Of a stretch of DNA of 64,000 bases, positions 13,523-26,156 are shown in pieces. How positions within the stretch are numbered: position 1 is the stretch's first letter; every line of letters starts with the position of its first letter. Source of the stretch: Dictyostelium discoideum (taxonomy: Eukaryota); the NCBI GenBank assembly GCA_000004695.1, contig CM000152.2:4064001-4128000 (forward strand), written 5' to 3'. The notes below the pieces were generated by a model. The model ran no database searches and had not been told where the DNA came from. It saw nothing but the letters and a program-made list of their open reading frames with translations. The position numbers and the translations under genes were made by a program.

Positions 13523-14244
13523 TTTAATTTTAATTTTTTTTTTTTTTTTGGTTGTGATTAAAAAAAAAAAAAAAAAAAAAAAATGGTCAGTAAAAAAAAA
13601 AAAAAAAAAATGACCAGTAAAAAATTTCAAATAAAACCCAGAAATTAATTCAAATAATTGAATACTTTGTTAATTAAATTTTAATTTAAAAATAAAAAGT
13701 CTGATAATTAAAAAAAAAGAAATTTAAATAATAAAAAAAAAAAAAAAGTTTGGTAAATTTTTTTATAAAAATAAATACTAGTAATATAATATATTTATAT
13801 ATTATTTATTTAATCGAACGATCGTACCCCAAAAAAAAAAAAAAAAAAAAAAAAAAAATGAAAAAAAAAATAGTTTAAAATGGTGCCATTATAAAAATAA
13901 TTTTTACATATAATAATCAAACACATTCAATGAAATTTCCAATTTTTTTTAAAAATAAAAAAAATAAAAAAAAAAAAAAAAAAAAAAAATTAAAAAAACA
14001 AAATTTGTCATATTCCGGAACTATTAATATCTTTTATTTTTTTTTATTTTTTTTTCTGACTAACAATACCAGAACACATAAAGAATTAATGAATTCTTGA
14101 ATAAAAAAAAATGGTTTTTTTATAAAAGACTCATTTTAATTTTAATTTTTTTTTCATTCATTTTAAAATAATAAAAAACAAATATAAAAACAAATAAAAA
14201 AACAAATATAAAAATAAATATAAAAACAAATAAAAACAAATAAA

Positions 14245-14571
14245 ATGTCAAGTGTTTCAAGAAAAGTTTCAAATGTTGCAAAAGGTTATAAAACTAAAGA
14301 TGGTGCAGGTGTATCACTTTTACGTGTTATTGGTGGACCTATCCCATCAAAATCAGTTGATCCATTCTTAATGTTAGATGCATTTAAATCAGAGAATCCA
14401 AATGATTATATTGCAGGTTTCCCATCACATCCACATAGAGGTCAACAAACTTTAACCTATATGATAGATGGTATAATGGAGCACAAAGATAACAAAGGAA
14501 ATAAAGGATTACTAAAACCTGGTATGGTTCAAGTTATGAATGCTGCAAGAGGGTATGTTTTTAAATATTAT

Positions 14572-14610
<39 letters not shown>

Positions 14611-15227
14611 AATACTAATAATTCAAAATAATAATATATATATAAAGTATTATTCACTCAGAAATGCCAAAACAAGTTGAAGGTAAAATGTTTGGATTTC
14701 AATTTTGGTTAAATTTAGCAGCAGTCGATAAAATGTCAGATCCATGGTACAAAGATATTCCAGCAGAAGAGATTCCAGAAGTTATTACGAATGATAAAAA
14801 GGTTAGAGTTGTTGCAGGTCATTATGAAGGTGTTGAAGGTATTGTTAAAGGTTTACGTGTTAATCCAATCTTTTTAGATGTTACATTATCACCAAACACT
14901 AAATTCTCTGTAGATATACCAAATTTCGATCATAATTCATTTGTTTATGTTTTCGAAGGTGAAGGTAAATTCGGTCCAGAAGGATATGAAAAAGTTGTAG
15001 CTGATCAACATATTGGTGTTTTAGAGAATAAAGACAGAGTTACAATTAATGATAATGAAATTACACCAAATAAATTAGATGCAATCGCAGGTGAAAATGG
15101 TGTTAGATTCTTATTTTTATCAGCAAAACCATTACGTGAACCAATTGTCCAACATGGTCCATTCGTTATGAATACACAAAAAGAAATTCAACAGGCTTTT
15201 TTTGATTACCAAATGGGTAGATTTTAA
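14245..15227 (+). CDS. Pirin (bicupin), intact copy
   Basis: Two exons 14245..14552 and 14648..15227 (donor GTATGT, acceptor AG at 14646-14647). The splice restores the conserved pirin motif ... MNAARG-GIIHSEMP ... Also contains HPHRG and DPFLMLD. Confidence 0.85.
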
Positions 15228-15564
15228 TTAATCACCTTTTTTATAAAAAAAAAAAATAATAATAAAGATTAAAAAAAAAAAAATTGTACTATAATTAATG
15301 TAAAGTGGTTATTAAATTAACCCCCCAATTAAACATTTATACTGTTGAATTAGAAAAAAAAATAATAAAATAAAATAAATAATAAAATCTTTTAAATTCA
15401 ATGAAATTAAAACATAAAAAGCAATAATATGATTGTTATATTATTGTATATATATATGGTTATTAAAAAAAAAAAGTTTTATTTTTATTTTAATATTGTT
15501 TTTTATGTTTAAAAAAAAAATGTTAAGTGAATCTTTTTTTGATCGATCGAGAAAAAAAAATTAA

Positions 15565-23362: not shown

Positions 23363-23715
23363 ATCACAAAGTGAGTAATCCAAACTCTGAAAAATAAAAT
23401 GAATATAAAAAAAAATAAAAAATTAAAGATAAAACCCCACAGGTCAAAAAAAAAAAAAAAGAAAATATTTAAATAAATATAAAAATTAAGGGTGGTTGGA
23501 TGTAAAAATTTCAGCATTAAAGTGGTGAAAAGTAATTTTGTGGGTTTGTCGCCTTTTTATTTTTTTATTTTATATGCGACTTAATAAAAATAAAAAATGA
23601 AATTTAAAATGATTTGTTTTTATTTTTTTTATTTTTTTTATTTTTTTTTTTTTTTTAATTTTTAATTTTTAATTTTTTATTTTTTTAATTTTTTTTTTTA
23701 TAATTAGCAATACCA

Positions 23716-24060
23716 GTTGGAGAACATGCGTTATTCATTGATGCAAAGAAAATACTTGGTCATATTCCAATTGATGATTTAATTGCTCAAACATTAGCTA
23801 TTGAAATTTATTTAGAAGGAGGTGTAAGAGGTGTTGAAATAGGTACCCTTTTAGCTGATAGAGATCCAATTACTCACGAAAATAGATATCCTCAATTAGA
23901 GTTTGTAAGACTAGCAATTCCAAGAAGATCATATACAAATAATCATATGAAAGCCGTAGCTGTAACACTTAAAAATGTATATGATAAAAGATTTGAAATT
24001 AAAAGTGGTTATAAAATTATTCATGAAGCACCAATTCTAAGACATTTTATGTTGAATTAG
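23716..24060 (+). pseudogene. Shorter tryptophanase-like C-terminal fragment (array unit 4)
   Basis: Begins abruptly at ... PFGEHALFIDAKKILGHIPIDD ..., fused directly to the AATTAGCAATACCAG motif that elsewhere precedes the pirin copies. Ends ... ILRHFMLN*. Confidence 0.55.
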
Positions 24061-24224
24061 AAAAGTTATAACTAATAATAAAATAAAATAAAAAACAAAA
24101 GAAAATAAAATTAAACTAAATCAATGAAATTAAAATATGAATAAGATTGTTTTTTATTTTATTTTAATATTAATTAATTTGAGAATCTTTTTTTTTTTTT
24201 CAATTTAAAAAAAAAAAAAATTAA

Positions 24225-24974
24225 TTAAAATGGTAAGTTTCCAAGAACTTTTGGTAATTGGACTGATGATTTTAATTTTAATTGTTTAGAATTTGGTGGA
24301 TTTAAACAAATACTTGGTAATTGGAAGTATGCTGAATCAGCAGATGGGTTGTAATAGTAATAGTTTGTTAATGAATATCCACTTGGTGTGTTGTTAATAT
24401 TTTCAGTTGAAGCAGAGATTAATGAACAATCTGATTTATCTACAAGGAGGACAAGATTTGTAGAGTTAGCTAAACTACTTGGACTACCTGCAAACATATC
24501 ACATTGAACAGTACCTAATTCGAAATCAGTAATATAGTTTAATCCTTCGATTGCTGGAACTGAGTATGATAATGGTTGTTGGAAACAATAATCAGTACCA
24601 TTTACATTAACACTAACGTATTGTGTACTATTACTACCGAAACCCCAGAGATTACCTTTTGTTTTTGTATTACCATTATCGAATAAAAAGTCAACATACA
24701 ATTGTTGACCAACCAAATCGATATTCATAAAACCAGATTCAAGGAAAGATGATTGTTGAATACCACTTGGAGTTGGATGGTTTCCATTAAAACTTATCAT
24801 AACATAAGAACTTGAATAACCTGTTGGGAGTTGGCCACTTGAAGTAAAACATTGTTGTTGACCTACTTGATTTTCAATTTTTGAGTAATCAATTTTATTT
24901 GTACCCATATTAAATGATTTACAACAATTTAATGCAATTGTCATTACTAAAATTAAAGAAAATAATAATTTCAT
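24225..24974 (-). CDS. Secreted 249-aa protein, tandem copy 4 (diverged)
   Basis: Intact ORF, about 90% identical to copies 1-3 and diverged mainly in residues 140-175. Confidence 0.7.
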   Translation of the reverse strand: MKLLFSLILVMTIALNCCKSFNMGTNKIDYSKIENQVGQQQCFTSSGQLPTGYSSSYVMISFNGNHPTPSGIQQSSFLESGFMNIDLVGQQLYVDFLFDNGNTKTKGNLWGFGSNSTQYVSVNVNGTDYCFQQPLSYSVPAIEGLNYITDFELGTVQCDMFAGSPSSLANSTNLVLLVDKSDCSLISASTENINNTPSGYSLTNYYYYNPSADSAYFQLPSICLNPPNSKQLKLKSSVQLPKVLGNLPF

Positions 24975-26156
24975 TTTTTTTTTATTTTTTTTTTTTTATT
25001 TATTTATTTATTTATTTATTTATTTGTTTATTTATTTTTATTTAAACACTGAAATTATTTGCTTAAAATATATTATATTTGTTTATTAATGAGATTAAAA
25101 AAAAAAAAAAAAAAAACCTTTTTATACTTAATTTATAAAAAAAAGAGGATTCACTTAAAAAAATGATATTTTAAAAAAAAAAATTTGTTATGGTTATTAT
25201 TTTTTTTTTTTACCTGGTGATGATGTCAAACGAACTTGTCATAAATGATTTATTTGAATCGGTGCATTCTGTAATTATAATATTAAAAAAAAATTAATAG
25301 GATTTTTGATTGATTTTTTGCGATAGGGTCAAAAAAAAATTTTCAATTTAAAAAAAATAAAAAAAAAAAATTTTATCGTAAAAAATCAAAAAAAATATCC
25401 AAAAAAATATCCTAATATCCTAAAATTAAAAAATGCCAGGCCATTACCCCATAAAAAAAAAATAAAATAAAAAATACCTCTTATCTTACTTGTCCCTGGT
25501 AATACTAAAATAATATTTATAATATATGATATTCATTTAATAATTGGTTATATATTCTTTATATTAAATGAAAATAATTAAATTATTTGAATGATTAGAT
25601 TAAAATTTAAAAATAATCAAGTATGGATTAATAAATTTTTTTTTTTTTACCCATGTTATCACACCTTCAAGGAATTTCTTTGTGTAATCTTGTCTGTATT
25701 AGGTAAATTTATATTATTTAGTTAGATTTTAAATTGGTTCTTTTAAAAATTTTTTTTTTTTTATATTGATCAGTTTTTTTTCATTAAAAATTTAAATTAA
25801 AAAAATTTTAATTAAATTCTTCTTTTTTTAATTTAAATTATTTAATAAATAATTTTTATTATTAAAATTATAATTATCCCGTTTTATTATGTTGTTTAAT
25901 GGAAGTTTTTTAGTAATAGTTAATCATGGTATATAAAACTAAGTAAACTAAAATCAAAAAAAAATTAATGGAAGTTTTTTTTTAAAAATAAAAATTGATT
26001 GGTTAGACTGTCTAACCAATAAAAACTGGAAATTTCGACTTTTTTAAACTTCAATTTCTATCCAATTAGACCTTTCCAATCGCGAATTTATTATGGACGA
26101 TGTTAATTATGGAAGATTTTGTAATTACAATTATTTTTTAAAATAGTAGACCAAAA

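Follow-up and report, generated by a model that had tools for sequence, protein, structure and literature searches.

A copy-number-variable tandem array of pirin, tryptophanase-like and ependymin-domain genes on chromosome 3 of Dictyostelium discoideum

We analyzed a 64,000-nt stretch of chromosome 3 of Dictyostelium discoideum AX4 (assembly GCA_000004695.1, contig CM000152.2, positions 4,064,001–4,128,000 of the forward strand), which is called the window here. Positions are those of the window unless another locus is named. The window contains a tandem array of four units, u1–u4. The unit is composed of a pirin gene, a tryptophanase-like sequence of the β-eliminating lyase family (the lyase) and, on the opposite strand, a gene for a secreted-type protein of 249 aa with an amoebozoan ependymin domain (the EPD gene). 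The state of these three genes was compared between the units, and between AX4 and related genomes.

Structure of the array in AX4

According to self-BLASTN of the 12–28 kb region and a repeat search, the array is located at 14028–25129 and consists of four units (Table 1), in agreement with the original prediction of such an array at 14–25 kb. The starts of the EPD genes are 2764, 3567 and 2329 nt apart (repeat families D5–D11). The u1 segment 14028–16847 is 89–92% identical to u2, u3 is alignable to both u1 and u2 across the 5' part of the pirin and across the EPD gene, and 21391–22812 of u3 is 90.8% identical to 23709–25129 of u4. The G+C content of the window is ~20%, and long Asn-rich open reading frames (ORFs) are present. 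A mis-joined or falsely expanded set of repeats was considered, as tandem repeats are prone to assembly error and the contig of one other strain (GCA_054859355.1) stops within the array. However, every unit bears unique lesions and junctions of its own. GCA_054883475.1, a separate chromosome-level assembly of D. discoideum, matches the array over 20,768 nt with 2 mismatches and 18 gap positions (99.904% identity). Therefore, the array is not an artefact of a single assembly. This answers the concern attached to the original prediction; an assembly artefact is extremely improbable, and the four-unit array is confirmed almost to the base.

Table 1. Features of the tandem array (positions in the window)
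Feature	Position	Strand	Description	Evidence
Whole array	14028–25129	none	four units	self-BLASTN, repeat families D5–D11, second assembly with the same array
u1	14028 to ~17200			self-BLASTN, repeats
u1 pirin	14245–15227	+	intact, 295 aa; exon 1 14245–14552, intron 14553–14647, exon 2 14648–15227	spliced translation, PF02678 and PF05726, AX4 match
u1 lyase stub	15340–15357	+	last ~6 codons of tryptophanase (TVELEK)	exact match to u3 lyase end at 21730
u1 EPD gene	15565–16314	-	EPD-like secreted protein DDB_G0281117, 249 aa, intact	ORF, exact-sequence look-up, PF25544 (E 2.8e-59)
u2	17201 to ~19778			self-BLASTN, repeats
u2 pirin	17406–17981	+	pseudogene	three-frame translation, junction sequence
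u2 lyase stub	18100–18117	+	2 mismatches; deletion junction as in u1	fuzzy match, u1–u2 alignment
u2 EPD gene	18329–19078	-	EPD-like protein DDB_G0281121, intact	ORF, exact-sequence look-up
u3	19779 to ~23650			self-BLASTN, repeats
u3 pirin	19976–20614	+	pseudogene; several frameshifts, retained intron, ~codons 139–251 deleted	three-frame translation, base-level alignment
u3 intergenic remnant	20615–21058	+	leftover of pirin–lyase intergenic region, ends at deletion of lyase codons 1–226	alignment to L001 8793–9419, sequence comparison
u3 lyase	21059–21754	+	tryptophanase pseudogene fragment, codons 227–457, in-frame TGA 21566–21568	PF01212, 63–66% identity to Bacteroidota tryptophanases
u3 EPD gene	21896–22645	-	EPD-like protein DDB_G0281131, intact	ORF, exact-sequence look-up
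u4	23659–25129			self-BLASTN, repeats
u4 fusion	23659–23716	+	pirin-upstream motif fused to lyase at ~codon 339; pirin and lyase 5' part deleted	58-nt match to 17204–17259, junction sequence
u4 lyase	23713–24054	+	tryptophanase fragment, codons 339–452 (~114), 1-nt deletion near end	sequence comparison
u4 EPD gene	24225–24974	-	EPD-like protein DDB_G0281135, intact, divergent 'type II' copy	ORF, exact-sequence look-up

The u1 pirin is intact. Removal of its 95-nt intron (GT at 14553, AG ending at 14647) gives the junction ..NAARG/IIHSEMP.., and the product matches the annotated AX4 'pirin family protein' with 100% identity. The metal ligands are present as HPH..(intron)..IIHSE (H-x-H...H-x-E), and u1 is the only array unit whose open frame covers both cupin domains and the four metal ligands. 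The u2 pirin has a change from TCA to TAA at codon 9 (17430–17432) and an in-frame deletion at 17713/17714, which fuses ..NAARG to EGKFGPEG. At the nucleotide level GCAAGAGG is joined to TGAAGGTAAATTC; the intron and ~103 codons are lost, including IIHSE with two of the metal ligands. In the u3 pirin the internal deletion joins ..DPW to ENGVRF... The three pirins are thus as had been claimed, namely intact with an intron, stopped early and deleted, and frameshifted and internally deleted; only the size of the u2 deletion, given earlier as ~105 codons, is slightly corrected. The u2 remnant retains an open frame of 149 codons from an internal Met (17532–17981, plus strand), in which the N-terminal cupin is fused to the C-terminal cupin, and a 210-aa product is called here by a newer annotation.

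No complete tryptophanase ORF of ~457 aa is present in AX4, where only codons 227–457 (with a stop) and 339–452 are found as pseudogene fragments. The stub TACTGTTGAATTAGAAAA is exact in u1 at 15340 and has two mismatches in u2 at 18100, so that the stub reported earlier for both units holds to the letter only for u1. The u1–u2 alignment is unbroken across the lyase deletion (14957–16723 to 17711–19457). As u1 and u2 align contiguously there, the near-total lyase deletion is one inherited event, and the two units do not represent separate losses. In u3, where a C-terminal fragment of about 230 codons had been described, 231 codons are left and codons 1–226 are missing; its 145-aa ORF matches PF01212 with 42.6 bits (cut-off 27). 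The lyase keeps the motif of the pyridoxal-phosphate lysine, SGKKDG. In u4 the motif TATAATTAGCAATACCAG, which lies upstream of the pirin in u2, is fused directly to TTGGAGAACATGC of the lyase. The fusion agrees with the earlier description of a fragment of about 115 codons, to which the 1-nt deletion near its end is added here.

The four minus-strand ORFs of 249 codons are exactly the AX4 proteins listed in Table 1, in the same order along the window. The u1–u3 proteins are mutually 97.6–98.4% identical, and u4 is 90–92% identical to them. Thus, the four genes are intact and three are nearly identical, as predicted. The proteins match Pfam PF25544 (Ependymin_amoebozoa, 'Ependymin domain, amoebozoa') with 200.3 and 199.3 bits against a cut-off of 27 bits, over profile positions 1–171 of 171, and precomputed annotation also assigns PF25544 to all the EPD relatives. 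Four cysteines (C42, C130, C183 and C223) are conserved without exception across 24 members of the family. The N-terminus MKLLLSLILVMTVALNCC resembles a signal peptide, as judged by inspection. The AlphaFold2 model is all-β with 11 strands, at a low confidence (mean pLDDT 59). Foldseek with this low-confidence model detected VioE, human EPDR1 (target TM-score 0.64), ependymins of mouse and sponge, RseB and LolA with E values of 1e-5 to 1e-3; the structures matched include 6e7o, 6jla and 8i34. These proteins all have the LolA-like fold reported for EPDR1 (PMC6363788). When solved structures were searched by sequence with the EPD profile, no match was obtained. The protein is a PF25544 member with a predicted fold of the ependymin-related (EPDR)/LolA type. 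Within the search made, its close relatives are confined to group-4 Dictyostelium species.

The unit in other genomes and the loss of the lyase

In BLASTN of the units on the single-unit locus, AT-rich low-complexity matches swamped a permissive map, and only long chains were used. D. cf. discoideum GCA_054859205.1 (locus L001) carries one unit with the same flanks, in which a frameshifted pirin, a lyase with codons 1–106 and 233–450 (a different, internal deletion) and an intact EPD gene are found. This bears out the ancestral unit of pirin, lyase and secreted protein assumed by the original prediction. D. discoideum GCA_054859385.1 (L003) carries three units: the first with an intact pirin and an EPD gene, the second with a deleted pirin and an EPD gene, and the third with a pirin fragment, a lyase ORF of 401 codons lacking codons 1–54, and an EPD gene. 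In D. discoideum GCA_054859355.1 (L005) three pirins that look intact and two EPD genes are visible before the contig ends. D. cf. discoideum GCA_054859235.1 (L006) has three intact pirins as well as two EPD genes, and its layout is more complex; D. citrinum (L004) has the EPD gene only at the syntenic site. The copy number of the unit therefore varies among genomes (1, 3, 4 and at least 3), which is the outcome of the comparison with other strains and species suggested earlier.

A dispersed copy of the array sequence is located on chromosome 3 of GCA_054883475.1, ~650 kb from the array (L007, reverse complement 7324–10117). This 2.9-kb copy is 95.8% identical to 14898–17713. It runs from the 3' part of a pirin through the lyase stub, an intact EPD gene (DDB_G0281635) and the spacer between units into the 5' part of the next pirin. 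As it spans a unit boundary, it was copied from an array that was already tandem.

Three side observations concern these loci. A pirin pseudogene of the three-unit strain was hinted by BLASTN to share the u3 deletion, but the base-level alignment shows differing junctions. The first unit of that strain has an insertion of ~590 nt (L003, reverse complement 2733–3319) that is absent from AX4; its ends resemble inverted repeats (TGTAACA...TGTTACA), and the insertion is possibly a small transposable element. The contig of GCA_054859355.1 that ends inside the pirin/EPD array is 1.54 Mb long, and the array thus breaks at least one modern assembly.

Among the genomes examined, only D. dimigraforme (GCA_054859025.1, L088 7997–9379) has an intact lyase, an intronless tryptophanase of 460 aa immediately upstream of a pirin that is 95% identical to that of AX4. 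The lyase is broken in every examined genome of the D. discoideum complex, the single-copy one included. The gene order in D. dimigraforme, lyase–pirin, is the reverse of the pirin–lyase order of D. discoideum, and relatives of the gene at 31.8–34 kb of the window are present on both sides of the pair. For comparison, a 457-aa lyase of D. discoideum was reconstructed from the N-terminus of L001 and the 401-aa ORF of L003. The D. dimigraforme protein is 85.6% identical to the reconstruction without gaps. The reconstruction aligns end to end, with 60–66% identity, with 457-aa tryptophanases of Bacteroidales/Marinilabiliales, and nearly all of its best 80 genome matches, as ranked by similarity, are from Bacteroidota. 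No intact D. discoideum protein was found among the matches of the lyase search.

According to the locus numbering, DDB_G0281127 lies between the u2 and u3 EPD genes, at the place of the u3 lyase fragment. DDB_G0281127 is the Beta_elim_lyase entry in Table 2 of a survey of candidate bacterial transfers, in which its function is listed as unknown and a D. purpureum homologue, DPU_G0057350, is named (PMC3188802). The lyase therefore appears to be this known transfer candidate and, from its sequence, a tryptophanase of the Bacteroidales type. The tryptophanase-like nature had been recognized in the original prediction; its candidate bacterial origin, which was already known, had not. The possibility that pirin and lyase arrived together as a bacterial operon was considered and rejected. 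The pirin has an intron, D. discoideum and several other Dictyostelium species have paralogues 72–76% identical to it, and homologues at a greater distance (49–55%) are present in D. purpureum, Heterostelium and Planoprotostelium. As a member of an old dictyostelid multigene family, it was therefore not co-transferred with the lyase.

The constraint on the lyase was examined at positions with a conservation of 90% or more in the bacterial homologues, by comparing each copy with D. dimigraforme. Changes found in the copy only and in D. dimigraforme only numbered 13 and 1 for the 401-aa ORF, 10 and 1 for AX4 u3, 2 and 0 for AX4 u4, and 10 and 0 for L001. Four changes are shared: R430K is present in 4/4 copies, and M244I, L302M and T310M in the three copies that span these sites. 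The shared changes indicate that the lyase was no longer under constraint in the common ancestor, either prior to the amplification or irrespective of it. The truncations came later as separate events, at codon 55 (L003), codon 227 (u3) and codon 339 (u4), with the internal deletion in L001. The 401-aa ORF was considered as a working gene, which is unlikely as codons 1–54 are missing and 13 conserved sites are changed.

These results bear on the claim that the units decay in a complementary manner. In such a subfunctionalizing process the units would share out the ancestral functions, and the array as a whole would keep pirin, lyase and EPD. The one intact pirin is indeed in u1 and the longest lyase piece elsewhere, in u3. 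However, no unit has a functional lyase, and u3 lacks codons 1–226 and has an in-frame stop; for the lyase the proposal is refuted. The single-copy lineage has a broken lyase as well, the conserved-site changes are shared, and the lyase deletion of u1 and u2 is common to both. Complementary decay is thus highly improbable. The decay of the lyase was not caused by redundancy within the array. The decay of the pirin is strain-specific, and pirin is not a general 'passenger', as two or three intact pirins are found at the locus in other strains.

Integrity of the EPD genes and exchange between copies

Across six genomes the EPD ORF is intact in 13/13 copies, and the EPD gene is the sole member of the unit for which this is the case. 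There are no indels in the EPD coding sequences, whereas the flanks have many. By parsimony, the four AX4 copies require at least 54 substitutions, and the 13 copies together at least 224. When the substitutions were placed at random, the probability of no stop codon was 0.01–0.03 for the AX4 set (54), and 0/5000 neutral simulations avoided a stop codon for the full set (224). One alternative is that the EPD genes are young neutral duplicates, which are intact merely because they are short and recently duplicated. The u1–u3 genes do differ at only 13–15 of 750 nt. Nevertheless, the pirin and lyase of the same units have gained stops, frameshifts and deletions, and the simulations and the absence of indels in the coding sequence are also contrary to neutrality. 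We regard this alternative as improbable.

The pairwise ratio of nonsynonymous to synonymous substitutions (dN/dS) is 0.14–0.47 for the EPD copies, 0.09–0.17 for the pirin pseudogenes and 0.19–0.32 for the lyase fragments. As obvious pseudogenes score low as well, we gave up the use of the ratio to demonstrate that the EPD genes are under selection. The divergence between copies probably accrued mostly while they were functional, or was moulded by conversion. The low values of the pseudogenes (0.09–0.32; 17406–17981, 19976–20614, 21059–21754 and 23713–24054) could reflect very recent disablement, conversion from live copies, or a bias of the method in AT-rich sequence. It should be noted that, in this AT-rich genome, pairwise dN/dS far below 1 arises for obvious pseudogenes as well.

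The EPD copies of one genome share features. G47, T52, S73 and M83 are common to all four AX4 copies, and N47, S52, L73 and I83 are found in copies of two other strains. In the EPD tree, AX4 u1–u3 group apart from the copies of other strains. The u4 gene is a mosaic: for residues 23–125 the synonymous divergence (dS) of u4 from AX4 u1/u3 is 0.03–0.07, while that from its nearest relative in another strain is 0.18 (~0.2 between strains). At residues 138–176 two types of patch are found, type I (..STPSLEGLKYVG..SVNPGDLGNSSNVG..) and type II (..SVPAIEGLNYIT..AGSPSSLANSTNLV..), and both are present in AX4 and in the three-unit strain GCA_054859385.1. This pattern is that of gene conversion of the EPD genes within genomes, which has left one variable segment (138–176) unerased. 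The strain-specific residues and the u4 mosaic thereby back the concerted evolution proposed for the near-identical copies.

The same marks would be expected if only one EPD gene were needed, as a master copy, and the rest were kept open by repair from it, with multiple copies not favoured. The strain-specific residues across the copies of a genome, the u4 mosaic and the grouping of AX4 u1–u3 in the tree are consistent with such a process, and one sister lineage and D. citrinum do with a single copy at this locus. On the other hand, the two patch types coexist unerased in AX4 and GCA_054859385.1, the pirin copies of the same units were not rescued, and the EPD subfamily has also spread to further loci with intact ORFs. 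The master-copy explanation is unlikely on balance, though it deserves more weight than that of young neutral duplicates.

Proposed history and comparison with known systems

Taken together, the locus is likely to be a copy-number-variable tandem segmental duplication, in which the lyase and the surplus pirins were lost while the EPD genes were kept by purifying selection and conversion. The original prediction that selection maintains multiple copies of the secreted protein is supported in this part by the 13 intact copies and the simulations. Its other part, that pirin and lyase decay as passengers, does not stand, as the lyase was failing before or regardless of the amplification and other strains have intact pirins.

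The following course of events is proposed. The ancestral unit of ~4.9 kb would have contained pirin and tryptophanase in one direction and the EPDR/LolA-fold secreted protein in the other, as still found in single copy in the sister lineage. The tryptophanase would have been gained from a Bacteroidales-like bacterium before the split of D. discoideum and D. dimigraforme, and was probably already evolving free of constraint in the D. discoideum complex. The unit may then have been amplified by unequal recombination between AT-rich flanks. One unit presumably lost almost all of its lyase, and re-duplication of that type could have given u1, u2 and the dispersed 2.9-kb copy. The remaining lyase and the surplus pirins would have been trimmed by separate deletions, frameshifts and stops; short shared bases are present at no fewer than two deletion junctions (u2 pirin and u4). 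Meanwhile the EPD genes would have been held open by purifying selection and partly homogenized by conversion within the genome.

The benefit may lie in a raised dose of a secreted protein that probably binds lipids and responds to bacterial infection, in the presence of two variants of it, or in both. EPDR1, which has a LolA-like fold, is described as lysosomal or secreted and as having a hydrophobic pocket for ligands (PMC6363788). DDB_G0281135, the u4 EPD gene, is reported to be strongly induced by Mycobacterium marinum infection (bioRxiv 10.64898/2026.09.10.750649); no mention of DDB_G0281117, DDB_G0281121 or DDB_G0281131 was found in the literature searched. We infer from these data a secreted, lipid-binding protein that responds to infection, with the dose or variety raised by amplification. 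More speculatively, and with a low probability in our judgement, the array might be part of an amoebal defence-type cluster, in which infection-induced, secreted LolA/EPDR-fold proteins of a gene-converting family with variable copy number bind bacterial lipids and the patch types at 138–176 are deliberately kept, by analogy with animal immune-gene clusters.

Several points weigh against the history proposed here. dN/dS fails to separate live from dead genes at this locus, and selection on the EPD genes is argued from ORF integrity alone. Conversion from a single selected copy could hold the others open without selection on each. The confidence of the EPD structure model is low. The order of the duplications and deletions is our inference. 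The expression evidence concerns one EPD copy and comes from a preprint, and read mapping may be ambiguous between paralogues that are 98% identical.

As for the neighbouring features, an ORF of 931 aa, Asn-rich with long poly-N tracts, lies directly upstream of the array (10835–13630, minus strand); no Pfam domain was found in it, and its position on the left side of the locus is conserved in all strains and also in D. citrinum. An Rfam scan of the array gave no match inside, and the sole match is a tRNA just downstream. This tRNA-Ala(UGC) gene with a 23-nt intron (26198–26295, minus strand) was found by Rfam and by ARAGORN with introns allowed, and is overlooked by the default tRNA scan. It is kept in the single-unit sister lineage (L001 13080–13226). 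A tRNA-Ala(AGC) gene is located at 3961–4033 (plus strand).

Three consequences are considered. In the reference strain, DDB_G0281127, one of ~16 candidate bacterial transfers into Dictyostelium, is present as a truncated pseudogene, and the record is corrected in this respect. The lyase deletions differ by the strain examined, and the sole intact copy is that of D. dimigraforme, which makes a clear case of the renewed loss of a gene that was probably acquired. The EPD family, which is secreted and poorly studied, is flagged for work on host and bacterium as an amplified, copy-number-variable and conversion-homogenized family.

The components of the array are all annotated genes or known families. 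With PF02678, PF05726 and its metal ligands, the u1 pirin resembles the pirin bicupins (bacterial YhhW/YhaK-like, quercetinase-type), but unlike the bacterial proteins it belongs to an old dictyostelid family. The reconstructed lyase resembles TnaA of Bacteroidales/Marinilabiliales in its length, end-to-end identity and SGKKDG motif, whereas the lyase of AX4 is present as C-terminal fragments with a stop or frameshift. Unlike its listing as a gene of unknown function (PMC3188802), DDB_G0281127 is here a pseudogene in each D. discoideum-complex genome examined. The array EPD proteins share with the ependymin-related proteins (human EPDR1, fish ependymins and sponge EPD-BCP1) a signal-like N-terminus, four invariant cysteines and a predicted all-β LolA-like fold. 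They differ in having no detectable sequence match to solved structures and in the restriction of the subfamily to group-4 Dictyostelium in the search made. Unlike Dictyostelium CfaD, which combines EPDR with cathepsin, they have a single domain. Tandem arrays with concerted evolution and differential pseudogenization are a general class of multigene-family evolution. The array resembles this class in the change of copy number by unequal recombination, in the conversion mosaics and in the loss of linked genes while one is kept. The mechanism is ordinary multigene-family evolution and is not new; the array is distinguished in that one of its linked genes is probably a bacterial acquisition in decay.

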